Below, piece after piece: positions 22,481 to 46,322 of a stretch of DNA of 64,000 nt; the stretch's first letter is position 1; the number at the start of each line of letters is the position of its first letter. This DNA comes from Ostreococcus lucimarinus (taxonomy: Eukaryota): assembly GCA_000092065.1 (NCBI GenBank), contig CP000593.1; one strand, given 5' to 3'. The position numbers and the translations under genes are program-made. The notes under the pieces are model-generated. The model was not told where the DNA came from. It did not search any database and saw nothing but the letters and a program-made list of their open reading frames with translations.

Positions 22481-24018
22481 ATGCGCGACCTGACGTCGAC
22501 GGTGCGACGCGACGCGACGCGAGCGCGACGCGACGCGCGACGGGAGACGACGGGAGACGACGGGCGGCGACGCGACGAGCGGACGGCGAACGCGAACGCG
22601 GCGACGCGGCGGCGGCAGGGTTTGCGCGATCGCGACGGCGACGCGGCGCGCGCGACGGCGGCGGACGCGCGAGGACGCGGGCGAAGAGTAACGCATCGCG
22701 AACGCGTCGCGGACGCGAAGGGCCGACGCGCCGCGGTCGAGCGCGAGGACTGACGGAGCGCGGGACGACGACGCAGATCGCGGCGCGGCTGGACGCGCAC
22801 CTGACGCTGCCGCTGCTGGAGTTCGCGCTCGCGGAGGGCACGCACGATGCGAAGTCGCTGCGAGAGGCGAAGCTGGCGACGCTGGTGAAGACGAAGATGT
22901 GCGATTGGGCGGAGGAGGCGCGCGCGGAGGCGAGCGGGTCGGGATCGGCGGCGGAGGCGAAGGCGAGGCGGGACGCGACGGTGGAGGCGCACGCGGCGCT
23001 GGGGAAGGCGGCGGCGCGGGCGGTGAAGTTCGCGAGCGATGGGGCGCTGATCAAGAACTTGCGACGGGATAAGGCGGCGAACGCGAAGTTCGCGGAGGAT
23101 AATCACGGGGTGACGAGCGCGGACGTGGACGCGCTGTACAAGTTTGCCAAGTTTGAGTACGAGTGCGGCGATTACGAAAACGCCTCGGAGCACTTGGGCG
23201 CGGTGCAGTTGTTGAGCGCGGACAACGAGCGGTGCGAGAGCGCGCTGTGGGGGAAGTTCGCGGCGGACATTTTGTTGCGGAACTGGGGCGGGGCTCTGGA
23301 CGACATGAATAGGTTGCGAGACGCGTTGGAGAGCAACGCGAGCACGAGCAACCTCGTCAAGATGAAGCAGCGCGCGTGGTTGTTGCATTACGCCCTGTTC
23401 GTCTTCTTCAACCACCCGAACGGTCGCAACTTGATCATCGACGTGTTGTTCCAGGAGCGATACATGCAAGCGGTGCAACAAGAGGCGCCGCATTTGTTGC
23501 GTTACCTCGCCGTCGCCATCGTCGCCAACAAGAAGCGCCGCAACATGCTCAAAGACTTAGTGAAGATTATCCAGAGCGACGTGTACGACGATCCCGCGCT
23601 CGACTTCGTCGTCGCGGCCTTCGTCGACTACGACTTCTCCAAGACGCAAGAGATGCTGAAGAAGTGCGACGCGATGATTGAAAAGGATTTCTTTTTAATC
23701 GGCTGCAAGGACGCGTTTGACGAAAACGCTCGACAGTACGTCATCGAAAACTACTGCAAGGTGAACAAGCGCATCGACATCGCCAACTTGGCGCAAATGC
23801 TCGGTATGCCCGCCGCCGACGTCGAGGCCACCATCGCGACTCTCATCCGCGGCAGTAAGCTCAACGCGCGAATCGATTCCGAAGCCGGCTTCGTGCACGT
23901 GCACGTCGAGAAGAAATCCGTCAACGAGCAAATCATCGAAAAGACCAAAGCCTTGCTGTCCAAGACCACCGCCCTCACGCAAGCCGTGTTGGCCAACACC
24001 CAGGCGCAGGCGTATTAA
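22481..24018 (+). CDS. EIF3E: Translation initiation factor eIF3 subunit E (INT6, PCI domain); two exons: join(22481..22501, 22777..24018)
   Basis: Exon 2 reads IAARLDAHLTLPLLEFALAEG ... FKFAKFEYECGDYENASEHL ... PCI domain, matching eIF3e ([25 protein letters not shown]). There is no ATG in frame upstream of exon 2. A 7-codon exon 1 (ATGCGCGACCTGACGTCGACG = MRDLTST) is followed by GTGCGA; the intron has ACTGAC at 22749-22754 and a CGCAG acceptor at 22774-22776. The spliced N-terminus MRDLTSTIAARLDAHL aligns with eIF3e. Confidence 0.75.
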
Positions 24019-24097
24019 CGACAATTTGTCATCGTCAACGCACCGGTATAGTTCGCGCCGCGCCGCGTCCCTCGCGTCACTTCGCCTCGCGCGCGCG

Positions 24098-24475
24098 ATG
24101 TCCCCGCCCCTCCGTCGCCTCGCGCGCCTCGTCCCGCGCGTCGCCGACGCGCGCGCGTTCGCGTCCGGCGCGGGCAAAGACGTCGTCCGCCGCGACTCGA
24201 GCGACGTCGCGTCGTCGTCGTCGTCGTCGGACGCCAATCCTTGGCGACCGGTGGTGGACCGCGAGACGCGGCGCGTGTACTTTTGGAATCCTCGCACCGG
24301 CGAAACCTCCGCGGTCGGCGCGCCGCGCCCCGCGACGGAATTTTTAGCGGACGATCCAGGCGCGTCCGCGCGCGAGGGAATCGGGACGCAGATCGGGTCG
24401 GCGTTCGCGATGGGCGCGGGCGCGTCCCTCGGTTTCGCGGCGGTCGCCGTCGCGGCGAGAATCGCGTTCGGTTGA
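24098..24475 (+). CDS. Small hypothetical protein with a presequence-like N-terminus, a WW-like segment (NPWRPVVDRETRRVYFWNPRTGETS) and a C-terminal hydrophobic segment
   Basis: First ATG in a 149-codon ORF whose track start is TTG. Weak. Confidence 0.3.
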   Translation: MSPPLRRLARLVPRVADARAFASGAGKDVVRRDSSDVASSSSSSDANPWRPVVDRETRRVYFWNPRTGETSAVGAPRPATEFLADDPGASAREGIGTQIGSAFAMGAGASLGFAAVAVAARIAFG

Positions 24476-24700
24476 TCGCGAGCGGTTCTTTAAAGACGCG
24501 ATCGATCGCGCGGATGGCGCGAACGCGCGTGGATCTCGTAGCGCGCTGTTGTTACAAAAGAATGGTTTCGTGGGTGCATCGCGGGATGGTTTCGTGAGCG
24601 CGTCGCGAGTTCGCGACGGGACGCCGACCTCGACGGCGTCCTCGCCGTTCCGACCAAATTTCACTCAAAAAATGTTTCGCCGACGCGCGACCGGTCCGCA

Positions 24701-25297
24701 TCACAGCGCGTCTCGCGAGGATAGACGACGAGAATAATCATCGCTCGACGGCGTCGTCGTCGCCGCCGCGCGCTCGAATTCTCGATCGGAATCTCGAAAT
24801 AAAATCCCGAGCGCCTCGAGCGCGGAGCCCCCGCGGGTCTGTAGAATTTCCTTCATCGGCGCCACCGAGGCGTAACCCACGCGAGGCTTCGCGCGTCGTT
24901 CGCCCTCGTCCGCGCGCGACGATTCCGACGAATCGTCGCGCCGTTCGATCCCGAGCGCGTCGAAATCTTGGAAAAGCGTCCCCGCGCGTTCTCGTTCTCG
25001 TTCTCGTTCTCGTCTCGGGACGTCCCGCGCGCGCGCCTCTTCGCTCTTCGCGCGCCGGTGCTTTCGCGCGTCGCGCGAGACCGCGCGCGGACGAAACTCG
25101 ACGCGCGCGTTCGCGTCCTCGCGCTTCGGCGCGCGTCGCGCGCGGCGCGGCGACGCCGGCGCGCTCGCGACGTCCCGTCGCGCCGCCGCGTCTCGCCGCG
25201 GCGAGGGCACCTTCACCCGGCTCGACGACGTTCCCATCGCCGGCGACCGCGCGAGCGCCGGAAGCGCGTTCCCGTGTTCGTCCGTGATCAGGCACAT
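24701..25297 (-). CDS. Low-complexity Arg/Glu/Ser-rich hypothetical protein; doubtful
   Basis: ORF from an internal ATG (MCLITDEHGNALPAL...) to a stop. The C-terminal 70 aa look protein-like (GTLFQDFDALGIERR ... YASVAPMKEILQTRGGSALEALGILF), but the region is GC-rich and repetitive, so coding is uncertain. Confidence 0.2.
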   Translation of the reverse strand: MCLITDEHGNALPALARSPAMGTSSSRVKVPSPRRDAAARRDVASAPASPRRARRAPKREDANARVEFRPRAVSRDARKHRRAKSEEARARDVPRRERERERERAGTLFQDFDALGIERRDDSSESSRADEGERRAKPRVGYASVAPMKEILQTRGGSALEALGILFRDSDREFERAAATTTPSSDDYSRRLSSRDAL

Positions 25298-25448
25298 GCG
25301 CCCGCGCGCGTCTCGGACGTCGCGCGCGAGGTGGCCGCGCCGACTGTCCGGAGACGCCCACCCCGAGCGCACGTCGCGAACTGCGGCGCGGCGTCGACCG
25401 CGACCGCTCGCGCGGCGACGCGCCGCGTCGATTTTCGTCGATTCGATC

Positions 25449-25603
25449 CTCGGCGGTATCGGAACGCGCCGATTCTCGGCGGTCTCGGAACGCGCGACGA
25501 GTCGGGAACCGATGGGCGCGGATTTTCGTTTGGTCGTTGCCAACGCTACGACGCGAACGCGCGCGACGCCTGACGACGCTACGACGCGAACGCGCGCGAC
25601 GCC
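25449..25603. repeat. Two short tandem duplications: ctcggcggtNtcggaacgcgc x2 at 25449-25495, and a roughly 33-bp unit (acgacgctacgacgcgaacgcgcgcgacgcc) x2 at 25540-25603
   Basis: Direct inspection. Confidence 0.5.
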
Positions 25604-26085
25604 ACGCGCGCGACGAAAGAATACAAGGAATACGCGCCGCCGACGACGGCGAAGAACGCGACGACGGCGAAGGCGGCGAACCACTCGCGCGAGACGCGCG
25701 CGCCGTCGGCCGCGGCGGCGACGCCGTCGGCCGCGGCGGTCGGTTTCTTTTTCTTTTCGTTTTCGCGTCGTCGAGCCGCGCCGTTCGACGCGTCGCCGTC
25801 CGCGTCATCCCGCGACGCGTCTTCGCGCGCCGCGGCGACTTCGCGCGCTCGCAAGAACGCGTCGATCTCGGCCATTCGCCGCGCCTTCTTCTCGGCTTTG
25901 TCCAGCTCGCGGCGCCGCGTCGCCGTCGAGGGCGGTTTCGCCGCGTCGATCGAGGTCGTCGCCGTCGTCGCGGCGTCTTCGCTCGTCGTCGCGACGTCCG
26001 CGCGCGCGACGCGCATCGCGGCGCGGTCGACGCGCGCGGCACAGTGCCGCGCGAGGATCGAATCGATTCGCGTTCGTGCGTCGCG

Positions 26086-27405
26086 ATGTCGGCGTCGCGC
26101 GCGCTTCGTCGCGTCGTCGCGGGCGCGTCGAACGCGTCGCGACCCGCGCGCGGCGCGTCGGCGGTCGCGGACGCCGCGCCGCGCGTCGGCGGCGGCGAAG
26201 GGCGCGAATCGACGTCGTCGTCGATGCCGGCGTCGCGGTGGCGTCGCGGCGCGCGCGCGCGCGGCGCGTGCGACGGGACGACGTCGTCGCGGTGCGCGCC
26301 GTCGTCGTCGTACCTGGAGTCGAAGCGTCGACGCGCGGCGGTGGCGGCGGCGATCGCGCGGTCGACGCGCGCGGCGGCGGCGGCGGCGGCGCGGCGAGCG
26401 CGCGCGTGGGACGCGACGGCGCGCGCGGACGCGCGCGACGGCGCGTACCGCGACGACGGCGCGCGTCGCGTCGAAAAGTTGTCGCGGGTCGGCGTGCTGG
26501 GCGCGCCGAACGCGGGGAAGAGCGCGCTGGCGTGCGCGCTCGTCGGCGACGCGGTGAGCGCGGTGAGTCGAAAGACGAACACGACGCGGACGCGCGCGCT
26601 GGGGGTGCGCACGGTCGGGGACGCGCAGGTGGTGTTCGTGGACGCGCCGGGGATCGTGGGGCGCGAGCACTACAGGAACGCGGCGCACGCGAGAAAGGTG
26701 GAGGACGCGACGGCGCTGGCGAGCGAGTGCGACGCGTTGGTCTTCGTCGTGGACGCGGCGAGACAGTTGGAGCGACGGGATTTGCGCGTGCTGGAGGCGG
26801 TGCGAAAGACGCGAGCGGCGCTGGGGGAGATGCGCGCGCCGCCGGAGGCGGTGCTGGTGCTGAATAAGGTTGATAAGATTCCGAAGGAGCGACGCGCGGG
26901 GTTGACGAAGATGGTGGACGATTTCCGCGCCGCGGGGGATTTTGAATTCGCGCGCGTGTTTCCCGTCAGCGCGCTCACGGGGGCGGGAACGAGAGCGCTG
27001 ATGGATCACATCGTCGCCGGCGCTCGGGAGGCGCCGTGGGAGTTCGACGCGACGTCGACGAGCGATATGACGCCGGCGCAGAGGGCGCTGGAAATCGTGC
27101 GCGAGAGCGTGTACGACGGCGTGCACGAAGATTTACCGTACGGCATCGACATCGCGCACGTCTCGTGGGAAGACTTTAGAAACGGTGACGCGCGCATAGA
27201 GCAAAATATTTTAGTCGACACCGCGTCGCAGAGGAAAATAGTCGTCGGAAAGTCGGGCGAAGTCGTCGGGCGAATCGGCATCAACGCCAGAGCGATGCTC
27301 GAGCGCGCGCTCAATCGCAAAGTGCACTTGATCCTGAACGTGAGACTGAAGAAGAAGAAGAAGAACTATCGCAGCGATGACGTCGTGTTCGCGGAGCAGT
27401 ACTGA
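26086..27405 (+). CDS. Era-type GTPase with a C-terminal KH domain and an organellar presequence-like N-terminus
   Basis: G-motifs GAPNAGKS, TTR, DAPG, NKVD, followed by a KH domain. The candidate start MSASRALRRVVAGAS... is at 26086; an alternative ATG lies at 26224. The track ORF start at 25537 is upstream arginine-rich read-through. Confidence 0.8.
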   Translation: MSASRALRRVVAGASNASRPARGASAVADAAPRVGGGEGRESTSSSMPASRWRRGARARGACDGTTSSRCAPSSSYLESKRRRAAVAAAIARSTRAAAAAAARRARAWDATARADARDGAYRDDGARRVEKLSRVGVLGAPNAGKSALACALVGDAVSAVSRKTNTTRTRALGVRTVGDAQVVFVDAPGIVGREHYRNAAHARKVEDATALASECDALVFVVDAARQLERRDLRVLEAVRKTRAALGEMRAPPEAVLVLNKVDKIPKERRAGLTKMVDDFRAAGDFEFARVFPVSALTGAGTRALMDHIVAGAREAPWEFDATSTSDMTPAQRALEIVRESVYDGVHEDLPYGIDIAHVSWEDFRNGDARIEQNILVDTASQRKIVVGKSGEVVGRIGINARAMLERALNRKVHLILNVRLKKKKKNYRSDDVVFAEQY

Positions 27406-27542
27406 TTAGTCGTAGGCGTAGTCGTAGATGGACGCGGCGCGGACAACCTTCGGGGCGTCTCGTAGCGGTAAACAACAACAAATCAATCACAACTGCACAA
27501 TAACGTTAAACACGACGCGCCTCGCTTCGAAGCGCGACGCGA

Positions 27543-28484
27543 CTACACGGTTTTCAAAACCTTCGCGTCTTTCGTCTCTCTGGACGACGACTCAAAGTAC
27601 CTCCTCGTGGTTTCGATGACGGTGAAGTAAATCACCCCGCCCAAACCGATTTCCAGCGCGCGCGGCGCCGCGCCGCGAAAGAAAAACGACATCCCGAACC
27701 TCTCCTTCAGTCGTTTCAACCCCGCCAATCCCTTTGGATGCGTCTTGAGATCGATTCCCATCGAAGACGCGCACACGTGCGCCGTGCGCGAGACGTCAAA
27801 CGGCGTCGTCACCAATCCCGTGAGACCGCCCGCGACGCCGCCGATGATCGCCGTCTGTCGCTTCCCCAGCGCTCTCTTCTTCTTCGTCTTCTTCCCGCTC
27901 TCGTCCGCCGCCGCGCCCTCGATCGCCAGCGTCGCTCGTTTCATCGCCTCGAACGCGCTCATCTGGATCGTGTCGAACGGCAGTTCCCTCGCCAGAAAGC
28001 TTCCGAATCCCGCGAACAGCTCTCCTCGTCTCGCCGACAGCCTCGCCGCCGTCGCCAGGCTCAACCGCGACACTTGCATTCGCCGCGCGATCAGCTCCAT
28101 CGGCGCCAGCACCGCGCTCGACGCCAGCGCGCCGAGCATCGCCGCGATCGACGGGTCCAACCCGAGCGTGCTCTTCGCGCACTCGTACGCCGACATGAAC
28201 AACGCGGTGCCCGGCGCCGCGCCGAGCAGCTCCGCCGCGACGCCGCCGTACAGCCGGTCCGCGGTCAATCGCCCGCCCGCCTGCGCGCGCGTCTTGAGCG
28301 TGTTCAGCGGGAACAGCACGAGCTGGCACGCGATGCCGGCGCACGCGCCGCTCGCGATGCCGACGCGGAGGGAACGCGCGAACGACGGCGGTCGGTCGGT
28401 CGCCGACGACGAAGCGTCGCGGCGCGTTTCGCGGCGCGCGCGCGCGCGATCGGCGTCGGCAGGGACGCGGGAGGGAGGCGGCAT
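27543..28484 (-). CDS. Mitochondrial carrier family protein (SLC25)
   Basis: ATG at 28482-28484. Three repeats with FPLNTLKTRAQ, PMELIARRMQ, PFDVSRTAHV. Confidence 0.85.
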   Translation of the reverse strand: MPPPSRVPADADRARARRETRRDASSSATDRPPSFARSLRVGIASGACAGIACQLVLFPLNTLKTRAQAGGRLTADRLYGGVAAELLGAAPGTALFMSAYECAKSTLGLDPSIAAMLGALASSAVLAPMELIARRMQVSRLSLATAARLSARRGELFAGFGSFLARELPFDTIQMSAFEAMKRATLAIEGAAADESGKKTKKKRALGKRQTAIIGGVAGGLTGLVTTPFDVSRTAHVCASSMGIDLKTHPKGLAGLKRLKERFGMSFFFRGAAPRALEIGLGGVIYFTVIETTRRYFESSSRETKDAKVLKTV

Positions 28485-28661
28485 GCGCGCTCGACCCGGG
28501 CGTCGCCGTGCGCGCCGCGCGCGCGCGGCAGGGGCGCGGAGTGGCGCGCGATGGCGCGGCGATGGACGACGGGCGACGCCGCGAGCGAACGCGCGAGAGG
28601 GACGGAGACGCGAAGGAACGAATGCGCGGTCTTAGCGTTGAAACCGAGGCGCGTCGCGCGA

Positions 28662-31425
28662 TCACTCGAGCGACTTGGAGACGATCTCGAAGACGTTTTC
28701 GCTCAGACCCGTCTTGGCGGCGATGCGCTCGAGCTGCGCCTTCATCGCCGACGCGCGCGTCGGCTCGAATTTGCGCCAACGCGTAAACGCGGACACCATG
28801 CGAGAGGCGACTTGGCCGTTGAGATCGTCGAGCTCGAGGACGATGTCGGCGAGGAATTCGTAACCGGAGCCGTCGATGGCGTGAAAGTTGGTGGGAGAGG
28901 CGCAGAAACCACCGATGAGGGAGTACACTTTGTTGGGGTTCTTGATGTCGAAGGCGGAGCCGGCGGCGAGCGCGCGAACGTTGGCGAGGTTGTTCGGGAG
29001 CGACGACGCGGCTTGGATGCTGAGCCATTTGTTCATGACGAGCGGGTCGTGCGACCACTCGGCGTAAAACGCATCGATGGCTTTGATGCGTTCGTCGCAG
29101 TCTTTGCCGCTGAGCGCGCTCAGGGCGGCAATCTTATCCGTCATGTTGTCCGCGGCGACGTAGCGCTCGTACGTCATCGCGGCGATTTCCGGCGCGTCCA
29201 AATACGACAAATATCCGATGCACGCGTTTTTCAGCGATCGCGCGGCGCGATCGGCGGGTTCGTTCGAATACACCGCGGCGCTGTTCGCTTGCGCCGTGGC
29301 TTCCAACTCAGCGCGAAGCTCCGTGGCGAGCGTCTTCATGACAAAGTCGCGAGCGGCGTGCACGGCGGCGGGATCCACCGTGCCCTCTTCGAGCATGTCG
29401 CTCAGCTCGCCCTCGGAAGGCACCATCATGGCGCGCGCGATGAACGCCTTGTCCGCGTCGGCAGCCTTGGCGCCCGAAAGAATCGTGCGCATCGCCGCCG
29501 TGATGGCGTCGTTCATCTTGAATGACTGCTCGCCGCCCTTGATCAGATCCAGGCAGAGGTTTCTGAGCAGCGTCTGCCCAGCCTCCCATCGGTTGAACGC
29601 GTCCGAGTCGTTCGCCATGAGGAACAACAAGTCGTCTTGCGTCAAGTTGGTCGTCAAACGCACGGGCGCGCTGAAGTTGCGCAAGATGCTCGGCACGGGC
29701 TTGGCGTCGACGCCGGTGAAAGTGTACGTCGCCGAGGCTTGATCGAAACGAAGCACCGCCGTCGTGCCGTGGGATTTGCCGTCGATCGTGAGGTTCATGT
29801 CTGCACCGTCGGGACCAACGAGACCAACGGCGATCGGGCACAAGACCGGAACCTTGGAGTCTTGACCGGGCGTTTTCGGAACCACTTGCGAGCATTCGAG
29901 GGTGAACGTCTTCGCGGCGGCGTCGTAAGACCCGTTCGCGGTGACGCGCGGCGTACCCGCTTGGGAGTACCAGGGCTTGAACGTGGACAAGTCCGCACCG
30001 TTGGCGTCGCACATGGCGGCGAAGAAATCCTCCGTCGTCACCGCTTGACCGTCGTGACGTTCAAAGTACAAATCCATCCCCTTGCGGAACCCATCCTTGC
30101 CGAGGAGCGTCTCGTACATGCGCACGACTTCCGCTCCCTTTTCGTAAACTGTCACGGTGTAAAAGTTATCCATCTTAATGTACGATTCCCGGGCGAATCC
30201 GGTGCGCCATCGGACCCGCGTCTTGGGCGAATTGCGCCATGCGAAGGCGCGAGACGTCGCCGATGCGCTTGACGCCTCGCGAGTTCATATCCGCGCTGAA
30301 CTCTTGGTCTCTGTACACAGTCAGCCCTTCCTTGAGGGACAGTTGGAACCAATCACGACACGTCACACGGTTTCCAGTGTAGTTGTGAAAGTATTCGTGC
30401 GCCACGACACCTTCAATGGCGGCGTAATCGGCATCCGTGGCGCTCTGCGGCGTCGCCAACACGAGACGCGAGTTGAAAATGTTCAGCGACTTGTTCTCCA
30501 TGGCGCCCATGTTGAAATCGTCCACGGCGACGATGTTGAAAAGCTCCAAGTCGTACTCCAAACCATACGTGTCTTCGTCCCATTTCATGGATTTGATCAA
30601 GCTCGTCATCGCGTGCGCGCACTTGTCCAAGTTGTGCGTCTCGGTGAAGATGCGAAGCGTCACTTCTTTGCCCGTCATCGTCTTGAATTTATCCTCCACC
30701 ATCCCGAGATCACCCGCGACGAGCGCGAAAAGGTAACACGGTTTTGCCCACGGATCTTCCCACACGGTGAAGTGCTTACCACCCTCCAAATCTCCAGAAT
30801 CCACCAAGTTTCCGTTGCCGAGCAGCACCGGATACTTCGTCTTATCCGCCGTGATGCGCGTCGTGAATATCGACATCACATCCGGTCTATCTTGATAAAA
30901 CGTGATTCGTCGGAAACCTTCCGCCTCGCATTGCGTGCAAAAGTTCCCAGACGACTTATAAAGTCCCTCGAGCGCGGTGTTCTCTTGCGGCTTAATCGTC
31001 GTCGTCACTCGCAAATCAAACGCCTCCGTCGGCAGCGCGCGCAGCGTGATCCCCTTCCCCGTCCGTTCGTACGTCGTGAATTTCGCGCCGTCCACCTCGA
31101 TCGCCGCCAACTCCACCGATTCATCGCCGTTCAGGAACAACGATTTCCCATTCGCATCGTTCGCCGGTCGAACTCGAATCGTCGACGTCACCGTCGTCGT
31201 CGCCTCCCCGAGCTCAAAGTCCAAATTCACCCTTTCGAACGCGTACGCCGGTCGCTCGTAATCCTTCAGATATATCGTCTTCGGCGCCTCCGTCGGCGTC
31301 TCCGTCGCCGTCGTCATCGCGCGCGGCTTCACCGCGCTCGTTCGCGACGTCGCGTTCGATGGTTTCGGTCGTGACGTCAGCGCTCGAAACGCCGCGCTCG
31401 CGACGCCTCGCGCGCTCGATCGCAT
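28662..31425 (-). CDS. M1 aminopeptidase N (bacterial PepN type) with a transit-like N-terminus; the reading frame is broken by a single extra nucleotide near 30178-30180 (possible pseudogene or sequence error)
   Basis: ORFs 30175..31545 and 28662..30173 are collinear with PepN. The first carries the zinc site [28 protein letters not shown] and ends ...[10 protein letters not shown]. The second begins [25 protein letters not shown], matching E. coli ...[23 protein letters not shown]. Deleting one C restores GIVIKMDNFY. Start ATG at 31423-31425 ([13 protein letters not shown]...). Confidence 0.8.
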
Positions 31426-31698
31426 CGTCGGCGCCGACGCTCGCTCGGGCGTCGTCTCGGGGATTCGTCGCGGCGCGCGCGAGCGTCCGGGCGCGCGTCG
31501 TCGTCGCGCTGTGCGGCGCCGAGCGCGACTGCGAGCGAAAAGCACACTTTCCAGCGCTTCAAAACGCGGCGACGCGGCGCGCGTCGCGTCGAGCGCGACC
31601 GCGGCGCGCGCGCGCGTCGCGAAGGCTTTATAACGGGCGCGCGCGGCGTCGGCGCGCGGAATCGCCGCGCGACGCGCGCGAAAGACGGCGAAACGTCG

Positions 31699-33147: not shown

Positions 33148-33253
33148 GCGTCGCCCTTCGCCGCGCCCGTAGCCTCACTTCGCCGCTCGCGACGTCCCGT
33201 CGTCGGTCGCCGTAAATAACGCACGCAACTCAACGCACGATCTCTCCACGGCG

Positions 33254-35810: not shown

Positions 35811-35875
35811 GGCCGACGTCGTCGCGCGTCGGTCGCGCTGGTGACGGTTAGCGTTTTGAATACTTTTGTTCATCT

Positions 35876-35982
35876 GTTTCGTTTCGTTTCGTTTCGTTTC
35901 GTCTTCGTCGTCGTCTTCGTCGTCGTCTTCGTCTTCGTCTTCGCGGCGCCGCGGCGACGGCGACGGCGACGGCGACGGCGTC
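35876..35982. repeat. Compound microsatellite: (gtttc)5, (gtcttc/gtcgtc)n, (ggcgac)4
   Basis: Direct inspection. Located 3' of the FKBP gene. Confidence 0.8.
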
Positions 35983-36578: not shown

Positions 36579-39500
36579 CTAGTCGAGCCATGCCGGTCGC
36601 CTGGCGCCGTCGAATCGTTGATCATCGTTCTCGTAATCGCTAAAGGATTGACTTCGCTGCGTCGACGCGTCGTCGTCGAGCGTGTCGGCGTCGGAGGCGG
36701 AGTCCCACTCATGATCATCCGCGACGAACGCGTCGGAGTGCCCGAACGCGTTGTTTTCGACGTGATTGTAGTCGCTTCCAACCCCCAAAGCGCGAACATC
36801 GACCACTGGTACGCCGTAATGTCCGCCGTCGCGCTGGCGCGTGCCGCGAGAGCCTCGCTTCGCGGTCGCGGCGTCGCCGCCGTATATCTTTGAACCGGTC
36901 TTACGCACCCAAGGCGCGCCACCGTCGTACTCGCGTTCGTTATCATAACGATGATGAATCAGCTCCGCGATATCATCGTCGTCGCCTTGTCCGAGCGACC
37001 ACGCGTCTCGCGAGTTCACCGAGTCGCCGCGCACGGGGCCTCCCGCGTACGAGCCTAGTTTCATTTTGGCCGCCGCGACAGTGCTCTTGTCGAACAAGAA
37101 CGCGTAATCGGGCTGATATTCGGGACGGTACGTCTCCGAACCGACGATTAACCCGGTCATGATGGCTTCGTGATACTGAGGTAAGTTTTTCCACGAGCGC
37201 GCGATGTCTCGACGCGACTTGCCCCAGTTATGCCACGCGACTGCGATTTGCCACAAACCCATGACGCCCAAAAGGGCGAAGAACATACCCATGAACGGCA
37301 TCCCCGCTTCGCTGAACGGTCGTTCTGCGAAACGCAGCTGTACGCGTGGCGGTGGAGCGACGAAATCTCCCGCCGACAACGCCCCGACTGTCGCGTCGCG
37401 ATACTGATGAAAGTACGTCGTCGCGACGCCGGTGCTTTGCACGATGGCCGTGAGCGCGCCGTTGTCGTGCGGCGGGTTTAATATTTCACCCCCAATCTCA
37501 TACGCAAGCGGAGGAGCATTGTTCTTACTCGAATGTTCAAAGTCTTTCGTCGGTTTCGCCAAATCAGGTGTCCAGTGGTACGAGAACATCCAAAGACCGA
37601 TGAGAGCGTGAATCGAGACTGAGATGAAAAGCACCTTCGCCGCCGTCATGGGAAGCGTGCTCTTCGATCTTTCGGGCAACTTGCACACTTTCAACAGGAG
37701 GCGGTAATCGTACAGGTACACCAACACGAAGTACATCGACAAAACCAAGTATATCAGCGGCATACCGCTCGAAAAGGTCATCGCCGCCATAATCGTAAAG
37801 CAAACGTCGCCGCACTTGGCGCCGGTGTCAAACGATGGCCCTTCAAACGCCTTGTTCAGCTTTGCTTGCGTGTGACAGTACGCCACGGAGAATTTTCGAC
37901 CGACATGCGTGATGATGTCTACAAGTACTCGAGCCAAAATACGTATCGTCACGCTCATCATGATTGCGAAAAACAACACCAAGCCGACGTCGTTGAACCA
38001 TTCGCTCGTGAAATCTGCGTACTCGCCTTTGAGCCCAAACATTTGCTTGATGAGCGGGAAATACCTGCCAATGTGATAGAAATTGGCGTTGAGCAAGCCA
38101 TAAATAACCGCGACGTTCAAATATCGCACCCAGAAGATTATTTTCGTCTTGAGCACCTTCGTGGCACTGCGCGTGCGCAAACGTTCTGCGGCGACGAGGA
38201 GGGGCACAATCCATTCGAGGAGGACGTTCATGAGCGTAATGCAAAACGACACCCACAACCAGTTGTAATACTCTCCTGGACCGAGGTTCACGTATTTCGC
38301 GCACGAGTGGCGAATGGCTTTGTTGTATGCCCGAACAACCTCCGAAGTTAAGCCGTACTTCAGACTGGCGCAGTAGCACGCGTGACAGTTTTGCATCGTC
38401 GGACCTCCCGGACAACGGTTGGTGTCTTGGGCGCAATTCGTCAAATCACGAACCGCATCCTGCTGAGCGTAACGACGATCTAAGAGTGTGGCGTTGGGGT
38501 AGTCGTAGAAAGCGTAAATTGGCGCCCCCCAAGGCATGCCAACGTACGTTTTGTCCTTGGAAAAAGCCACGCCGCATTGGTCCAAGCGAGCTCTGCATGC
38601 TGTCCTGAACTGATTCTTATGCGTCTCGAATTGCTCAACCGGATTACCGTGGGCGACGACAATGCCAACATCGTCCGCAAGCGTAGTGACCATCATGTCT
38701 GCGTTCTCCCACAGCTTCTCCTTGTCATCCACGAGCATCTTCAAAAAGCCGTAACACAAGAGCACGACGGCCGAGCACGAGAATAGCACGACGAGTCGAC
38801 GCCATGAGCGATTCGAGAGATTCAGATTCTCGAATCGTACGTCCTCAGGTTCGGGAGCATCTCGCACTCTGTACTTCCGCTTTCCTCGGAAACGCTCTTT
38901 CCTAGGAAACGCAAAGATGTACGACATTATACTGCGCGTGTTGCGCAATATACAATCAATCTTTGAGCCTTCGGTTTCAAACGTGATGAAAGCACTACAC
39001 TGTTTCGCCCGCGTTCGCGCTCTTCTGCGCTTCAATTTCCTATCCACAGCCAATATCTCGTTTTCTATAGCCGTCTTCGTGCCGTCACCTCCGCGATTAC
39101 CTGCGGCGATGAGCGCAGCTTCGGCTTCGTCGTAATCCTCCAACAAGCGCCGACGCCGTCGCTGCGCGTTGATTTGCATACACTCCGTCTTTACGAGCAC
39201 GACGTCGGCTACCGTCCCAAACCTGAGCGCGAAAAAGCATCGCACTTCTTCATCGGTCGCATCGCTTGGTAATCCTGTAACTAATACCGTGTAATCCTTC
39301 AACGTCGCCGTCCCTCTCTCGACCCGTCGCTCCGTACGCATCAACACAAGCATAATCACTGGAACGCTCAATATAATTATCAAGGACACCACGACATCCA
39401 TCACCACCGAAAATCGAATGAAATCTATCTTACTGGAGCTCCACCGCAGCACCCCACTCGTTGTCCCCGCGAGCACCCACGCTCGTTGCGGCACATCGTC

Positions 39501-40031
39501 AGGCGCCACGGTCCCCAAGCTCGCGCTCATCGGATTCGCCCAGTGCCAATCGACGAACCACGAGTGAAACGACGTCGTCGGGCGTCCACTGAGCGCGTCC
39601 GCCGTCGGCGCTGTCGCGGTTTCAGGCTCCGCTTCGTAATGCGACGCGTAATACGTGCTCGTGTAATTAATGAACATCGCGGGCAAATTCAACGCGAACG
39701 CCGCGAAGAACAAGCACGCGAACGCCCGCAGCACGAAAAAGTATCCCGATACCCCCGCCCCGAACTCCAATCCCAAGTCTACTTCGGAGTCAAAATATTT
39801 AAGTTTTTCCAATTTCCCATCCTCGCTCAGCAGTCTCGGCTGCGCGCTGTCCGCGTGCGTCGCCGCCTCTTCCGCGCTCGGCGGCAGGTACACCCCGCGT
39901 TCCCGCTCCACGTCGCGGTGATCCTTCACCCGCGCGTCCTCGAACGCCTTTGTCGACAGCACCTTATCCGACGCGATTCGTGCGTCCGCACGCGCGCGCG
40001 CGGGCGTCGCTGGCGTCCAATTCGTGTCCAT
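36579..40031 (-). CDS. OSCA/CSC1/TMEM63-family (DUF221) stress-gated cation channel-like membrane protein
   Basis: N-terminal TM segment, a cytosolic RRM-like module (DYTVLVTGLPSD...AFITFETEGS) and a multi-TM C-terminal domain. First ATG at 40029-40031 (MDTNWTP); the track start at 40049 is GTG. Confidence 0.6.
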   Translation of the reverse strand: MDTNWTPATPARARADARIASDKVLSTKAFEDARVKDHRDVERERGVYLPPSAEEAATHADSAQPRLLSEDGKLEKLKYFDSEVDLGLEFGAGVSGYFFVLRAFACLFFAAFALNLPAMFINYTSTYYASHYEAEPETATAPTADALSGRPTTSFHSWFVDWHWANPMSASLGTVAPDDVPQRAWVLAGTTSGVLRWSSSKIDFIRFSVVMDVVVSLIIILSVPVIMLVLMRTERRVERGTATLKDYTVLVTGLPSDATDEEVRCFFALRFGTVADVVLVKTECMQINAQRRRRRLLEDYDEAEAALIAAGNRGGDGTKTAIENEILAVDRKLKRRRARTRAKQCSAFITFETEGSKIDCILRNTRSIMSYIFAFPRKERFRGKRKYRVRDAPEPEDVRFENLNLSNRSWRRLVVLFSCSAVVLLCYGFLKMLVDDKEKLWENADMMVTTLADDVGIVVAHGNPVEQFETHKNQFRTACRARLDQCGVAFSKDKTYVGMPWGAPIYAFYDYPNATLLDRRYAQQDAVRDLTNCAQDTNRCPGGPTMQNCHACYCASLKYGLTSEVVRAYNKAIRHSCAKYVNLGPGEYYNWLWVSFCITLMNVLLEWIVPLLVAAERLRTRSATKVLKTKIIFWVRYLNVAVIYGLLNANFYHIGRYFPLIKQMFGLKGEYADFTSEWFNDVGLVLFFAIMMSVTIRILARVLVDIITHVGRKFSVAYCHTQAKLNKAFEGPSFDTGAKCGDVCFTIMAAMTFSSGMPLIYLVLSMYFVLVYLYDYRLLLKVCKLPERSKSTLPMTAAKVLFISVSIHALIGLWMFSYHWTPDLAKPTKDFEHSSKNNAPPLAYEIGGEILNPPHDNGALTAIVQSTGVATTYFHQYRDATVGALSAGDFVAPPPRVQLRFAERPFSEAGMPFMGMFFALLGVMGLWQIAVAWHNWGKSRRDIARSWKNLPQYHEAIMTGLIVGSETYRPEYQPDYAFLFDKSTVAAAKMKLGSYAGGPVRGDSVNSRDAWSLGQGDDDDIAELIHHRYDNEREYDGGAPWVRKTGSKIYGGDAATAKRGSRGTRQRDGGHYGVPVVDVRALGVGSDYNHVENNAFGHSDAFVADDHEWDSASDADTLDDDASTQRSQSFSDYENDDQRFDGARRPAWLD

Positions 40032-40422
40032 TCCGCGTCGGTTTTGCACCGAATTTCGCGAATTTGCGGAATGCCGCGGGGTCGTTACGTCGACGAGCGT
40101 CGCGCACCGACGCGCGCCACGCGCGCGCGCGCGGTTGAGCTTTCAACACGACGCGTACTATCGCCCGACGCGCGCGTGGCGCGTTTACGGTGCGTTCGCG
40201 GCGATGCGAGGCGGCGGTGTTTGACGCGCGGGACCCCGTCCTCGCGGTTCCTTCCCCCTCTGGCTCGCGAGAACCACATTCGACGGATTCGGTGCGGAAG
40301 CGCGCGGTTGCGTTCGCGAGGGTGCTTGAGTAACGTGATATTACAACTTTTGGCGCGGGCGCCGCGCGCGCGGCGCGCGCCGACGGGTTTCGCCGTCGAT
40401 CGACGGGGCGTCGGATTCGCAG

Positions 40423-42033
40423 TCACGCCGAGTCGGAGCCCGAACCGTCGTCGGAATCGGAATCGGATTCCGCGCCGCCGCCGGCGAGTTGTGCGGACAC
40501 TTCGTCGCTGAGTGGTGTGATGCACGTCCATTTCGGACGATTACCGAGATCGAGTTTCCACACGTCGTCGAGGGAAACTTCTACGTCGCCGAGCTCGACG
40601 ACGCCGCCGAACAAGTACATGCTATTCGCCTTGATCGCTATGGCGGCGTTGATTCGTCCGCGAGGTTTCGGGAGGGATTTCGGCGGCGCCTCTCCACTTC
40701 CGGGTGAGTACAGCAACTCGCTCACGACGCCACCGACCTTGTATAGCTTGTACGCCTTGCGAACTTGATAACCGCGAAAGTGAGCTTGAATCTTAATCGC
40801 CGCCCGGTGCGCCTCGCTGCGAATATTAAAGTTTTCGTTCACCACGTCCCCGGCGGCGACGCGCTCGGCCTCTTCCAAGCTCCCCGCTTTGTGTGTTTTC
40901 GTCTTATCTTCGCCGTACAAGGTGACAGGGAACCATTTCTTGGCCTCCATGTTCAAGTTGTACGCGTCGGTGAAGAACTCAGAGACGATGACGTCGCCGC
41001 GCTTGACCTCGTGATCCACGACGCCGCCGAACAACACTAAACGCTTCTTCAACGCGTGCATCGCACTCGACGCCCCTGCGCGCGCGCTCGGCGCTAATCC
41101 TTGTCGCTTCAGCTTTTCCCATCGCCACGTCTTTAAATCTAACTTCCAAGCGTCTGAAAACGTCGTCCCGCGTTCGCTACGATCCTCGTCGGCGTCGCCG
41201 TCGTTGTCAACGTTTTTACAATACCCTCCGTACACGATGAACGCGTCATCGTGCACGCCCACGTGACACGCGCTGCGCGGACTCGGTCCGAGCGCTCCCT
41301 CGCCCCCCGCGCACCGACACTTCCACTCGCTCTTCTCGAAATCGTACTCCCACGCGTCGTTGTAATACCGAACCTCGCGTCCAGTGTCGTAAAACCCGCC
41401 GAATAAGATCGCCTTCTTCCCCCAAATCGCCATCCTATGCCCCGACCGCGCGCTTGGCCCTCCCTTCGCCGGCATTGCCTCCCAAATGTTACTCTCCAAA
41501 TCAAATCTCCAGCAGTCGCGATGGTGTAAAAACCGCTCTTGATTCGGCGACGTAAACTCTCCCCCGAACACGTACACGTACCCCCCGTACGCCAACGCCT
41601 GATGTCCCGACCTCGGATGCGGTCCTTTCGCGTTCGATACCTTCGTCCATCGATCGCGGTCGACGTCGTATCGATACAAATCACCGTACACGACGCATTT
41701 TTCATCCCCCGGCGTCACGCGTTCGCCGCCGTACAAAATCAACTCATTCCCTCTCCCAACCACAGTCGCCGTCAGCGACGCGTGTCCTCGCGCCTGCGGT
41801 CGCGGGCAATCCTTCTCCACCTCCACCTCCGCGCGCCGCGCGTCCTCTATCGCCATCGCGGCTAAAATAGCGTCGATGTCATCCTCCACCAGTCCTCTCT
41901 CCAGCCGTCTGTGATTTTTTTCCGCATTCTTCTCTCGTTTCAGCGCCGTCTTCGTCGCCCCCGTACGCTTATCCGCGCTCACCTTGCCGAGCTTCTTCGC
42001 CACTTTCTTCCGCTTGTCGCGTCCGCCGCCCAT
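40423..42033 (-). CDS. Kelch-repeat protein with an IQ motif (KLHDC4-like)
   Basis: Start MGGGRDKRKKVAKKLGK... at 42031-42033. Kelch blades (LILYGGERV, YVYVFGGEF, AILFGGFYD, FIVYGGYC, LVLFGGVVD, MYLFGGVVE) and an IQ motif, AAIKIQAHFRGYQVRKAY. The upstream part of the track ORF is arginine-rich read-through. Confidence 0.75.
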   Translation of the reverse strand: MGGGRDKRKKVAKKLGKVSADKRTGATKTALKREKNAEKNHRRLERGLVEDDIDAILAAMAIEDARRAEVEVEKDCPRPQARGHASLTATVVGRGNELILYGGERVTPGDEKCVVYGDLYRYDVDRDRWTKVSNAKGPHPRSGHQALAYGGYVYVFGGEFTSPNQERFLHHRDCWRFDLESNIWEAMPAKGGPSARSGHRMAIWGKKAILFGGFYDTGREVRYYNDAWEYDFEKSEWKCRCAGGEGALGPSPRSACHVGVHDDAFIVYGGYCKNVDNDGDADEDRSERGTTFSDAWKLDLKTWRWEKLKRQGLAPSARAGASSAMHALKKRLVLFGGVVDHEVKRGDVIVSEFFTDAYNLNMEAKKWFPVTLYGEDKTKTHKAGSLEEAERVAAGDVVNENFNIRSEAHRAAIKIQAHFRGYQVRKAYKLYKVGGVVSELLYSPGSGEAPPKSLPKPRGRINAAIAIKANSMYLFGGVVELGDVEVSLDDVWKLDLGNRPKWTCITPLSDEVSAQLAGGGAESDSDSDDGSGSDSA

Positions 42034-42132
42034 GGCGCGTCGCGCCGCGCGCGTCGTCGTAAAGTGTCGTCGTCGTCGTCCCGCTCGTCTCGTCCCGACG
42101 GCGACGGTTCGCGACAGTGCGCGACGCGCGCG

Positions 42133-43000
42133 ATGGCGAACACGCTCGAGGAGTGGTACGCGAGCGTGCCGACGGTGACGCGCATGTACCTCACGCTGAC
42201 GTTCGCCGTCACCGTGGGCTGCGCGCTCGAGGTGCGTCGACGGAAGCGCTCGATTGGATTCGACGCCGAGCGACGAAGATTCGATTCGCGCGGCGAAGGG
42301 GGCGACGCGCGCGAACGGCGGGAGACTGACGACGCGCGCGCGCGACTCGACGCAGTTGATCTCGCCGCTGAACGTGTACTTCAACAGTAAGCTGATATTT
42401 CAAGAGTACGAGCTGTGGCGGTTGGTGACGAATTTCTTCTTCTTCGGCTCGCTCGGCGTCGACTTCGTGTTTCACATGTTCTTCCTGAGCCGGTACTGTC
42501 GAATGCTCGAGGAAGGGTCGTTTCAGGGACGGTCGTGCGATTTCTTTTACATGCTGCTGTTCGGGGGGACGCTGTTGACGGCGTTCGCGCCGTTCGTCAA
42601 CGTGCAATTTTTGGGGACGAGCCTGACGTTTATGATGGTGTACGTGTGGGGACGGAGAAACGCGGCGACGCAGATGTCGTTTTTGGGGTTGTTCAACTTC
42701 ACGGCGCCGTATTTACCGTGGGTGTTGCTGATTTTTTCCACCTTGATCGGATCGCAGCCGATCACGGATGCGCTAGGAATGATCGCCGGACACGCGTATT
42801 ACTTTTTGAAGGACGTGTATCCGGAGATGACGGGGAGGGAGCCGTTGAAAACGCCCGCAATCGTGTGCGCTTTGTTCGGTACGCGGCAGAGATTAGTCGA
42901 CACGGATGGGGTGCAAACGCGTGCGGCGCGACGCGCGCGGCGCGACGCGGGGGCGGCTGTCGAGGGAGCCGCTGGGGCGCCGCGAGACTTGAACGAGTAA
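42133..43000 (+). CDS. Derlin (Der1-like ERAD protein); two exons: join(42133..42231, 42356..43000)
   Basis: Exon 1 reads MANTLEEWYASVPTVTRMYLTLTFAVTVGCALE, followed by GTGCGTCGAC. The intron has ACTGAC and a CGCAG acceptor at 42353-42355. Exon 2 reads LISPLNVYFNSKLIFQEYELWRLVTNFFFFG...LSRYCRMLEE, aligning with Derlin (GCSLEIISPYNLYLN...QFWRLITNF). Confidence 0.85.
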
Positions 43001-43086
43001 AGCGACGATATAGAAAGCGACGATATAGAAATGTTGTGAACGAGACGACTTAGAATTGACAAGAAAAGAAAGCCTTTCGCGCTATT

Positions 43087-46000
43087 CTATTGGAGTGCGG
43101 TAACGATCGTATCCATGACCGCAGCCGCCGCGACGGCGTCCATCGAAGCGACGGTGAATCTATATCGTCCGCGCACGTTCGCGTCGCTCTCCACGCGAAC
43201 GCCCACAAAGACTTCACCGCATCGTTCGCCGACGAACCGGCTTCCCGCGATTAAGTTTGCGGGGTTTGGATCTAAGCCTTTATGTACGACGAGCCGCATG
43301 CCCGAGAAGGCGTTTGACACGCTTTCGATGCTCGTCGCGTACTGCTGCGACACGTCCATAATTTTCTGTTGCTGCCCGGCGGACGCCATCTGGTGCCACT
43401 TGGCGATGAACTCTTGCGGCGAAGCGATGGTCATCGGGCTCAAAAACTTGGTCACACGTACGGGCAACTCCAGAGACCTGGCACACGCCGCCGCGACGGC
43501 GGTGGACGTGTACGAAAACTCGAGTTTTGGCGCCGAGGCAAACGCCGACGTAATCGCTACTTGCAACATCAACTGCACCTGGCGCTTCGGTCCGATGGAC
43601 GCGGGGAAGGGTTGAAGACTGTGACGCAAGCCTTCGATCGACGGTATGACCATTCTGAAGTTTTGCAGATCCGCGCTCGCGGACTTGTTCCCAACGTAGA
43701 ACATCACGCGACCTTGAGACCCTTGCCACTGCGATTTCACGCCAATCTGTACGTTCGCGTCTTCATACAGCAAGCCGTTGTCGGCGATGAGGAACCGTTT
43801 CGCGCAGTCTTGAACGTTCACCGTGGGTTGAATACCGTCGCTCGACGTCAATGATTGTACCGGTGCCACGGGTTGCGTCGGTGCCGGCGCCGCGGGCGCC
43901 GGCGCACCCAGAGCTCCAAAGGCGTCTAAGGCGTCGCCGTGCGTCGCCGGCGGCGGTTGCGTCGCCGCGAGCGCGCCTAAGCCTAGTAAATCGTCTAAAG
44001 CGTCTGCGGACGATGTGGTCGTCACCGGCCCCGCGGGAGGTGACGTGGAACTCGGAAGTGCGAGACGCTCTTCTACCGCTGGAAGTGCGGGAGGGGCGTT
44101 TCCGAGAAGCTCGTCGAGATTCATCCCAGTCGACGACGGCGGAAGCGCCGCCGGCGCCGAAGATCCGTCGCCCATCAAGTTGCCGAGCAAATCTGTGACG
44201 GCATCGACCGGCGGTGCTGCGGCTGCAGGAAGCGCCGGCGCCGACCGCGCCTGAGCGCGGGGTTGCTCTCTCGCCGTCACGACACCACTCATGGCAAGTT
44301 TACGAACTCCCGCGGCGACGTCCGAGGCGACGTTTTCTACTTGTATGTGCTTCTCCAACACGCTCGAACGTTCAGGGTACTCGGGCATGGGCTCGAGAAT
44401 CGGTCGCATGTTCGGTCCGAGACGCAAGAGCTTCAGATATTCGTTTGCACGTTGCTGCAACTCGACGTCAAACGATGAGCTCATGTCGGTGAACACCTTC
44501 ACGATCTTACCCATCGACGCCTGATCGCAATTCTTGTGCATCGCAACCTTGACGAAGGCTGTGAGCATGATGCCCTGCGTGACCTCATCCGTATCCTGGA
44601 ACAGTGGCACTAAGAGATCGACGTACTGCGACGCGGGAATGGGAAGCAAATACCCAAACTCTCCGATGCAGTACGACATCGCGCGAAGCATGAGTTCGTT
44701 CGACGCGCCCTCGTCGCGCAACTTGACGAACATCAATTGCGCCGTGCGACCGTGAAGCGACGCGTCGTTGGTTGCGATTTGCACCATGCGATGCCACAAG
44801 TCGTCGTTGATGAAATCGCCCGCCTTGTCTATCATTTGCATCGCGATCTCAATGAACCACATGCGATCGTTCACGCTGTAGCGCTCGGCCAAGATGGCCG
44901 TTTTGAGCGCCAGTTCCTCGCGAATGTCAAAATCAGCGGTGACGAAGTACTTGATGAGCTCCTCGATGACAGAGTGCACGTTGGAAGCATCGCACATAGA
45001 AAACAATAAAGTCAACGCGCGGCGACGAATGGAAATGTCCGCGTCGTGCAACGCAGCCACGACTTGCTCTTGGTACACCTTTATGGCTTCTCGCAAATCC
45101 GCCATCGCCGCGAGGGCGTTGAGCGTGTTGAGAGCCAAGTAGCGAATATTCGGTTCCTTCATGTCGAGAAAATTCCCGAGAATCTCCACGCACGGGTCCA
45201 ACAGTTCGTGCGCGTAGTCCATGCTAGTAACTAAATTGATCGCCTCGAACAAGATGGCGTGCAGCGCATTGTTCTTATTGAAGTTTTTCACCGTGTCCGT
45301 CTTGGTGAGGATGTTTCGCATGGCGATGAGCTGCGAATCGAGCAGCGCCTGATCGTCTGGTGTGGGAAAGTACTGCAAAATCTTCATGCACTTCACCTGT
45401 AACCATGGAGAGGGAATACCGTAGTACAAATACTCGGGCGGAATGTCCTTATTCCTCGTCAATCGTTCCAACAACGCGATGACCTTGGGCACGCACGCCT
45501 CGTACCCTCGGTAATCGTGCTGCACGAGACCCAGCAACAAACCCAAGACGCCCATGAGCACCCCCAAATCGCGCTCGGCGTCGAGTAAGTCGGTCATTTT
45601 TGACGCGAACGTTTCCGCGAGTAAAATTTCAGGATTCTTACGAAACAACCTCAACAGACACAGCGCCGCCTTTTTCCGAACCACCGGCCGAATCGTCGGC
45701 GTCATCACAATCGTCTCCACGTCCCCAGCTAACGAATCCGCGAACTCCCGCCCCCCGACGTTCGCGATGCACGACAACCCCAAGCACTGATTCGTCTCAT
45801 TGCTCGAGATCACATCCGTGCGTATGCTATTGATGGCCATTCTCAAAAACTCGTTTCTCTCGTTCAATATCACCGACGTCGTCATGTACCCAACCTGTTT
45901 CTCCGCGTACGACGACGCCGATATCAACTTCAGCGCCTCGGTGTGTCCAAAGTCCACGTTATACCCGAGCATGTATATGTACAGCAGCTTCAGCACGTAC

Positions 46001-46322
46001 TTTTTCCGTTCGTACGCCGTGAGCGCGCGGTGGGTCTTATTGAATTTCCGTCGAATATTCGCCAGTTCCTTCTCCACGCGCGCGCGCTCTTGCTCCTGCG
46101 TTCGCGTTCGCGACGCGCGCGACCCTCGTCGTCAGTCCGCGCGCCTCTCTCTCGCGCTCTCGCCGCTCAACGCGTCACCGCGCGTCGTTTCGTTCGATCG
46201 AATGCCCTCGCCCGTCGTCGTCATCCCTCGCGCGCGCGCGCTCGCCGCACCTTATTACTGCAGTTCCGCACGTCTTGCACGAACACCGTCAGGCCGCGCA
46301 TACCACCGAGAAACGGCGCCAT
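43087..46322 (-). CDS. AP-2 complex subunit alpha (alpha-adaptin); two exons: complement(join(43087..46095, 46251..46322))
   Basis: Exon 1 reads MAPFLGGMRGLTVFVQDVRNCSNK (alpha-adaptin GMRGLAVFISDIRNC), followed by the donor GTGCGG. The intron spans 46096-46250, with GACTGAC and a CGCAG acceptor. Exon 2 reads EQERARVEKELANIRRKF...KKYVLKLLYIYMLGYNVDFGH..., continuing to the appendage domain. The track start at 46077 is an internal GTG. Confidence 0.85.

Follow-up and report, generated by a model that had tools for sequence, protein, structure and literature searches.

A stretch of 64,000 nt of Ostreococcus lucimarinus CP000593.1 (here called the window; this one window was analysed, and all positions are numbered over the whole stretch) carries at least seven introns in six of its roughly 35 genes, namely those for eIF3e, Derlin, AP-2 alpha, TAF2, a radical-SAM protein and an RRM protein. 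They are almost certainly GT-AG spliceosomal introns of the ordinary U2 type and belong to the class, of roughly 400 introns, that prevails in this genome outside chromosome 2; they are placed near the 5' ends of their genes behind short first exons. A preliminary description, made from the letters of the stretch, had listed four introns; all four are real, with the total set too low. It had also called them classical GT-AG spliceosomal introns with stereotyped signals in an intron-poor genome, and this is borne out by identity to RefSeq models, by homology, by precise removal and by conservation in relatives. The novelty that it implied does not stand, the consensus and the introns having been published in 2007-2008: the consensus has been known since 2008 (Irimia and Roy, PLoS Genet 4:e1000148, PMC2483917, in the section 'The Peculiar Case of Ostreococcus'), and all four introns, including one behind a 7-codon exon, are in the public gene models of 2007. 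The additions made here are minor, and comprise the RRM and TAF2 introns that are absent from RefSeq, some repairs to gene models, and one candidate lineage-specific intron.

The signals of the seven introns are highly uniform. All of the donors are GTGCG, as had been quoted for the first four, with T at +6 in three; the donor decamer GTGCGTCGAC is shared by two. All 3' ends are CAG, extended to CGCAG in six of the seven, the exception being TAF2 intron 2 with GCCAG. A branch-type motif CTGAC (of the CTRAY type) is present throughout, within GACTGACG in six introns and within GCGCTGACGA in the radical-SAM intron, and the putative branch A lies 23, 26, 30, 31, 31, 34 or 36 nt from the 3' end. 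Pyrimidine tracts are lacking from the segment that leads from the branch site to the AG, in which the fraction of T is 0-0.23. The introns are 107-275 nt long with 60-78% G+C, the average for the window being about 61%. Every one falls inside the first ~230 nt of coding sequence, the first exons, ATG included, are of 7-78 codons, and the exon frames join in all seven cases. GT and AG ends, a branch motif, in-frame joining, and a conserved position with no coding constraint on the interior are all as in U2-type introns. From what is established of such introns, the spliceosome would remove them, and the short 5' exon or exons would thereby be joined in frame to the main exon.

Evidence from the individual genes

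For three of the introns a spliced form is on record, for Derlin and the radical-SAM gene as contigs and for the RRM gene as an exact protein product. The Derlin gene (plus strand) consists of exon 1 (42133-42231, 33 codons, ATG at 42133), a phase 0 intron of 124 nt (42232-42355), and exon 2 (42356-43000). The intron reads GTGCGTCGAC ... GACTGACG (42324-42331) ... ACGCAG, with the branch A 26 nt from the CGCAG acceptor. The spliced 247-aa product is identical to XP_001421000.1 by exact-sequence look-up, and its residues 5-202 align to residues 4-205 of human Derlin-1 (a PDB chain) with no gap at the junction. Three contigs (L009, L010 and L011) lack exactly 42232-42355.

The radical-SAM gene (plus strand) has exon 1 at 49207-49433 (75 codons and 2 nt), a phase 2 intron of 107 nt at 49434-49540, and exon 2 at 49541-49955, which holds the Pfam Radical_SAM match; its open reading frame (ORF) is broken unless spliced. 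The preliminary description had the eIF3e, Derlin and AP-2 alpha introns exactly right, but had ended this fourth one at 49477. That 44-nt version (49434-49477) was rejected: it leads to the same downstream frame as the 107-nt excision, and would add to the protein 21 residues that none of the relatives has. When both splice variants are aligned with six relatives, all of which read I(A/G)SSGE(S/D)DPGVV with no insertion, the conserved ...IAS|SGESDPGVVF... is obtained from excision of 49434-49540 alone. The same end is given by the RefSeq model XP_001421002.1 (174 aa), which contains PPIASSGESDPG, that is, the 49433/49541 junction, and by contigs L005-L008, which match the window at 99.4-99.8% and lack exactly these 107 nt. 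The corrected intron reads GTGCGTCGAC ... GCTGAC (49505-49510) ... GCGCAG, and with its branch A 31 nt from GCGCAG it fits the common signals. We note that XP_001421002.1 starts at a later internal Met (MPASSKF), while the longer N-terminus is conserved in relatives.

In the RRM gene (2076-4545, plus strand), exon 1 (2076-2309, 78 codons, ATG at 2076) is followed by a phase 0 intron of 196 nt (2310-2505) that reads GTGCGCGCGA ... GACTGACG (2466-2473) ... GTCGCAG. The spliced product of 757 aa (P0238) has an exact match in the protein collection, from public sequencing-run assemblies only, and RefSeq has just a partial model of 183 aa for this gene.

The eIF3e gene (plus strand) has the shortest first exon, the ATG and six further codons (22481-22501, MRDLTST, as read from the DNA). 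A phase 0 intron of 275 nt follows (22502-22776), reading GTGCGACG ... GACTGACG (22748-22755) ... ACGCAG, with its branch A 23 nt from the CGCAG acceptor. Exon 2 (22777-24018) carries the Pfam eIF3_N and PCI domains, and its first 40 codons are without an ATG, the first in frame being at 22897. The eIF3_N match begins with profile position 7 at residue 2 of exon 2, and the DER1 match in Derlin exon 2 begins at profile position 23; the conserved N-termini of both domains are therefore missing from exon 2, and exon 1 is needed to complete them. The spliced 420-aa protein, MRDLTST included, is identical to XP_001420993.1 / ABO99286.1 of O. lucimarinus CCE9901 by exact-sequence look-up, and residues 3-195 align to residues 5-200 of human eIF3e (a PDB chain) with no gap at the exon junction. 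Natural variants of the locus (P0011, P0138 and P0144) read through the intron in differing frames, so that the indels within it are not multiples of three. Three relatives were examined, with orthologous introns in contigs L020, L021 and L022. Two of the three have a first exon of 7 or 9 codons followed by GTGCG ... ACTGAC ... CAG; for the third (L018/L019) just the 3' end of the upstream intron is seen (GACTGACGA ... TGACAG), the contigs stopping before the donor.

AP-2 alpha is encoded on the minus strand. Exon 1 (46251-46322, ATG at 46322) consists of 24 codons (MAPFLGGMRGLTVFVQDVRNCSNK), the phase 0 intron of 155 nt (46096-46250) reads GTGCGGCGAG ... GACTGACG (46137..46130) ... ACGCAG, and exon 2 (43087-46095) holds the Pfam Adaptin_N, Alpha_adaptinC2 and Alpha_adaptin_C matches. 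The branch A is 36 nt from the CGCAG acceptor; the ACTGAC that had been described ahead of CGCAG in the eIF3e, Derlin and AP-2 alpha introns is thus found in all three. Residues 7-154 align with solved AP-2 alpha-2 chains in the PDB, and the junction is crossed without a gap. The RefSeq protein XP_001422806.1 begins MAPFLGGMRGLTVFVQDVRNCSNKEQERARV, in which these 24 residues run straight into EQERARV, so that its gene model has the same 5' intron. The claim that these introns are needed to recover conserved N-termini is upheld by the ungapped PDB alignments, the lack of an early ATG in eIF3e exon 2 and the broken radical-SAM frame, and the tiny first exons with the start codon (7 codons in eIF3e, 24 in AP-2 alpha) are both present in RefSeq models. 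As a separate observation, two RefSeq models of AP-2 alpha (P0268 and P0269) leave out internal stretches of low complexity (for example at ..KLAMS|DLLGNLMG..) and are missing the last 12 residues; their internal 'introns' are probably prediction artefacts.

The suggestions that there may be more short 5' exons, and that genes be re-scanned for them, both proved sound, since a regular-expression scan and a coding-potential scan of the window gave three further introns, one in the RRM gene and two in TAF2. In our TAF2 model (plus strand), three exons join in frame from the ATG at 56348. Exon 1 (56348-56403, 18 codons and 2 nt) is proposed here and is not in RefSeq. Intron 1 (56404-56520, 117 nt, phase 2) reads GTGCGTTACG ... 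GACTGACG (56485-56492) ... GCGCAG; exon 2 (56521-56672) is of 152 nt; intron 2 (56673-56827, 155 nt, phase 1) reads GTGCGAGACG ... GACTGACG (56791-56798) ... CGCCAG; and exon 3 (56828-60141) carries the Pfam Peptidase_M1, TAF2_3rd and TPR_TAF2_C matches. The RefSeq protein XP_001421003.1, of 1112 aa, takes as its start the ATG at 56803, which lies within intron 2; it therefore lacks 69 N-terminal residues, and its first 8 residues (MDGIRRAP) are a translation of the intron. A homolog search for the TAF2 N-terminus gave matches to exon 3 only, and a PDB search covers residues 159 onward only (human TAF2 from residue 173), with residue 173 of the three-exon model aligned to human residue 178. 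The N-terminus is nevertheless settled, because a contig of a relative (L024) shows the same exon-intron structure. In a tblastn comparison, exon 2 matches this contig with 56% identity over 52 residues (E = 1e-15), and the match is flanked there by AG and GTGCGTG. Exon 1 of L024 ends ..NVLFPR with a GTACGC donor at the same position, and exon 2 ends ..ANG|GTGCGTG; its intron 1 reads GTACGC ... ATTGACGG ... GCGCAG, and its intron 2 reads GTGCGTG ... GGGACTGACGA ... GTGCAG.

Pfam scans of the remaining ORFs in the window revealed no other truncated N-termini. Further candidates from the regular-expression scan, among them 3659-4096, 7567-7829, 42535-42673, 51519-51073, 30622-30296, 15812-15419 and 56228-55990, were set aside as lying in coding sequence of high coding score or as having no supported exon 1.

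It is worth adding that the Derlin and AP-2 alpha introns are found at the same codon positions in genomic metagenome contigs from three related lineages (L012, L014 and L016), in which the exons differ from those of the window at the level of 59-93% protein identity, depending on the gene. The signals are retained there, namely GTGCG (GTGAG once), CTGAC (TTGAC once) and CAG. For the orthologous introns as a set (Derlin, AP-2 alpha, eIF3e and TAF2), the signals are kept and the interiors and lengths have diverged.

Motif counts, intron-less contigs and alternative explanations

A number of observations weigh against the interpretation given above, the first being that the motifs are not in statistical excess. 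The GACTGACG motif occurs 6 times in the window with 4.6 expected, and at least six copies were obtained in 30 of 100 shuffles; the full donor-branch-acceptor pattern was observed 6 times with 1.5-3.9 expected in shuffles and Markov simulations, which is not significant. Enrichment of the motifs was accordingly rejected as evidence in this CG-rich DNA and, the counts being no higher than chance, the case is made instead from where the motifs lie, from homology and from the comparison with relatives. In terms of placement, all six copies of GACTGACG are inside the seven introns, which make up about 1% of both strands; all are on the strand of the gene and 23-36 nt before CAG. GTGCG on its own has 292 copies in the window. 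The shorter motif ACTGAC occurs 11 times on both strands together, six of these in introns, with 14-21 expected under Markov models, and is if anything depleted. Such under-representation would be consistent with exons avoiding cryptic branch sites, or with an effect of codon usage.

These counts could be taken to mean that the motif combinations are chance arrangements in CG-rich DNA, the genes being unspliced and translated from downstream start codons. Suitable ATGs exist (22897 in eIF3e, 45972 in AP-2 alpha and 56803 in TAF2), and the downstream ORFs are indeed called by prokaryote-style gene callers on metagenome contigs. However, the short exons encode residues that match conserved N-terminal sequence in eIF3e, AP-2 alpha and Derlin-1, exon 2 of eIF3e would have to do without an ATG for 40 codons, and the radical-SAM frame would be broken. 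Moreover, intron positions and signals are conserved at 56-93% protein identity of the exons while the interiors are not, and the spliced forms on record refute the chance explanation outright for Derlin, the radical-SAM gene and the RRM gene. We regard it as barely credible for the set as a whole.

The remaining points against concern the evidence for splicing itself. For the junctions of eIF3e, AP-2 alpha and TAF2 no contig in spliced form came to light, and the splicing of these introns in vivo is something that we infer. The contig index has no entry for the spliced 420-aa eIF3e product, and two scans of JGI metagenome contigs for the eIF3e junction gave nothing, although that collection may hold no suitable transcripts. 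The near-identical strains L001-L004 have too little variation for a test of intron against exon substitution. Intron removal is seen in contigs L005-L011, from the public runs SRR28369057, SRR28369099, SRR28369218, SRR28369158, SRR11178170, DRR699210 and DRR699221; we infer that these are transcript assemblies, of RNA origin. Finally, contig L009, which is colinear with the window through 43087-46095, lacks the Derlin intron and keeps that of AP-2 alpha.

This last observation would agree with an origin of L005-L011 from genomic DNA of natural strains, in which introns had been lost precisely by way of reverse transcriptase. The contigs span 1.5-9.4 kb and continue through intergenic DNA and through genes on both strands, which is also what genomic DNA would give. 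Against this, compact Ostreococcus genes have overlapping transcripts (PMC2367439), and a precise-loss allele would be required for each of three introns. The spliced forms are also rare, 3-5 being found compared with 515-556 intron-bearing contigs. In addition, L009 breaks off precisely at 49433, where radical-SAM exon 1 comes to its end; a stop at this 5' splice site is expected of transcript assemblies, because spliced and unspliced reads branch there. Natural loss of this kind is unlikely in our view, and precise excision from GT to AG would confirm the introns under either explanation.

The radical-SAM intron and the likeness between introns

The radical-SAM intron is absent from the genomic contigs of the three related lineages mentioned above (L012, L014, L016; at 10001-10732), where the ORFs are uninterrupted, and three more relatives, judged from ORFs and not from contigs, also have uninterrupted frames. 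A sister lineage with 94% identity (P0008) has a GTGCG donor at the same point. The Ser codon at the insertion site is AGC in the window, split as AG|C, and TCT, TCA or TCG in relatives. The most parsimonious reading of this distribution suggests a lineage-specific gain. A bolder version, for which the identity of its donor decamer to that of Derlin also speaks, is that the intron was gained recently in the O. lucimarinus lineage and had all its consensus signals (donor, branch site and acceptor) from the outset; this is improbable. If it were true, then together with the likeness of two other introns described below it would mean that Ostreococcus introns could still be spreading by copying (through reverse splicing or a process like that of introners), and would offer a compact system in which to study intron gain.

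Such copying leads to a further explanation of the uniform signals, namely that they are members of a family of mobile introns able to propagate themselves, as the introner elements of Micromonas do, the shared signals reflecting common descent of the copies and not selection acting on the splice sites. The GTGCGTCGAC decamer common to the Derlin and radical-SAM donors would be in keeping with this, as would a recent gain of the radical-SAM intron, given its absence from the three related lineages. Pairwise local alignments of the seven intron cores revealed one exceptional pair, AP-2 alpha and TAF2 intron 2, which are both 155 nt long and about 70% alike over ~100 nt; their alignment score is 40, compared with a mean of 25 (sd 3, maximum 36; z ~5) for dinucleotide shuffles. 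This pair is, however, one of the 21 that were compared, and the similarity in other pairs is no more than CG- or GAC-rich low complexity. The lengths vary (107-275 nt), and those of AP-2 alpha, Derlin, eIF3e and TAF2 are of old standing, since they occupy the same positions in deep relatives with interiors that cannot be aligned. As both members of the exceptional pair are ancient, a retained paralogous similarity is unlikely, and their likeness is probably due to GAC/CG-rich low complexity. A mobile family is therefore a highly improbable source of these introns. The introns of the window resemble the Micromonas setting in that the host is also a picoalga of the Mamiellales and that one intron looks lineage-specific, and they differ from introner elements in that no repeated family of intron sequences is evident among the seven, with one weak pair.

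Genomic setting and comparison with known systems

Each annotated protein of the window is present twice in GenBank, as ABO99282-ABO99296 and ABO99442 and again as ABP01251-ABP01265 and ABP01165. One set is in a record of 528,469 bp and the other, in opposite order, in a record of 321,799 bp; the window may represent either of the two. Segments of chromosomes 9 and 13 are reported to be duplicated into chromosome 21 (PMC2367439), and the paired accessions fit this published duplication, with the window as a nuclear segment duplicated between two chromosomes.

Comparison with the related lineages also reveals a rearrangement. In L012, L014 and L016 the HECT gene adjoins the Kelch gene, and the PHM7-like gene comes after a gene of ~985 aa. 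In the window (36579-56124) the PHM7-like gene comes before Kelch, and HECT after the 985-aa gene. Judged by this gene order, a block of ~13 kb is inverted or rearranged between the window and these lineages.

Several other features of the window were noted. The aminopeptidase N gene (PepN-like, with Peptidase_M1 and DUF3458; 28662-31425, minus strand) is in two ORFs, separated by a frameshift at ~30187-30192. The break consists of one extra G in a CCCGGG run, and deletion of this G gives an uninterrupted protein of 920 aa; the protein collection contains neither half of it, nor the repaired form. An intron was considered for the split at ~30.18 kb and rejected, the frameshift being of 1 nt, and either an assembly error or a pseudogene would account for it. 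A tRNA with anticodon GUU (Asn), identified by Rfam at 9484-9597 on the plus strand, has an insertion of ~42 nt right after position 37 of the anticodon loop, which is an intron of the tRNA type. With its bacterial setting, ARAGORN reported no tRNA in the window, this one included. The G+C content falls to 50-55% in the stretch 6000-16000, from ~63% elsewhere. Within this stretch a CobW-family GTPase gene (12810..11170, minus strand) adjoins a divergent ZIP zinc transporter gene (13273-14802), and the two may form a zinc-homeostasis gene pair.

Turning to known intron classes, U12-type introns have a donor of the form [AG]TATCCTT and a branch motif TCCTTAAC located 10-15 nt from the 3' end. 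The introns of the window have GTGCG donors, and their CTGAC motif, which is ACTGAC in all but one, places the branch 23-36 nt from the 3' end; they are thus not of this type.

The short introns of the low-GC half of Ostreococcus chromosome 2 share the genome with those described here and, as far as is known, the spliceosome. They are 40-65 bp long, dense and weakly defined, with GTRNGT donors and no common branch motif (PMC2483917, PMC2367439). The window introns, at 107-275 nt and with strong signals, are not of this kind. The radical-SAM candidate in its 44-nt version would have resembled the chromosome 2 type; with that version refuted, the 107-nt intron belongs to the standard class.

A parallel is provided by the hemiascomycete yeasts. 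The introns of S. cerevisiae have the donor GTATGT and the branch site TACTAAC, and are biased towards the 5' end of the gene, behind very short first exons; short first exons and 5'-biased introns are usual in intron-poor genomes, of which S. cerevisiae is an example. The window is similar in having few introns, near-invariant donor and branch sequences, 5'-proximal positions and first exons that can be of few codons. It differs from the yeasts in the sequences themselves (GTGCG in place of GTATG, and ACTGAC in place of ACTAAC), and its introns have a G+C content of 60-78% and no pyrimidine tract. Convergence between such intron-poor lineages is a theme of the study by Irimia and Roy (PMC2483917).

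The same study provides the most direct comparison. It gives 17,592 expressed sequence tags for O. lucimarinus, and in the introns outside chromosome 2 that such tags confirm, ACTGAC is found in 87.2% and GACTGACG in 66.5%; the consensus at their 5' splice sites is atypical, namely GTGCGTG (4.8 bits), CGCAG is preferred at the acceptor, and the distance from branch to AG peaks at ~20-35 bp (PMC2483917). The introns of the window agree with this class in every feature compared, that is, in 5' consensus, branch motif, acceptor preference and branch distance. Irimia and Roy also asked whether the C at +4 of the donor, which is mismatched to canonical U1, implies a changed small nuclear RNA (snRNA) (PMC2483917); the window holds no snRNA gene.

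The organism and the signals being the same, there is no difference in kind between the window introns and those described outside chromosome 2. Where they do differ is in annotation, three of the seven (one in the RRM gene and two in TAF2) being missing from the RefSeq models. Short 5' exons are also missed systematically by prokaryote-style callers in metagenome assemblies, as in the ORF calls for eIF3e, Derlin and AP-2 alpha. The signature GTGCG ... GACTGACG ... CAG, which is that of the known class, is thus a reliable handle for the repair of truncated gene models, both from Ostreococcus and from marine metagenomes, TAF2 and the RRM gene being two that can be repaired in this way.

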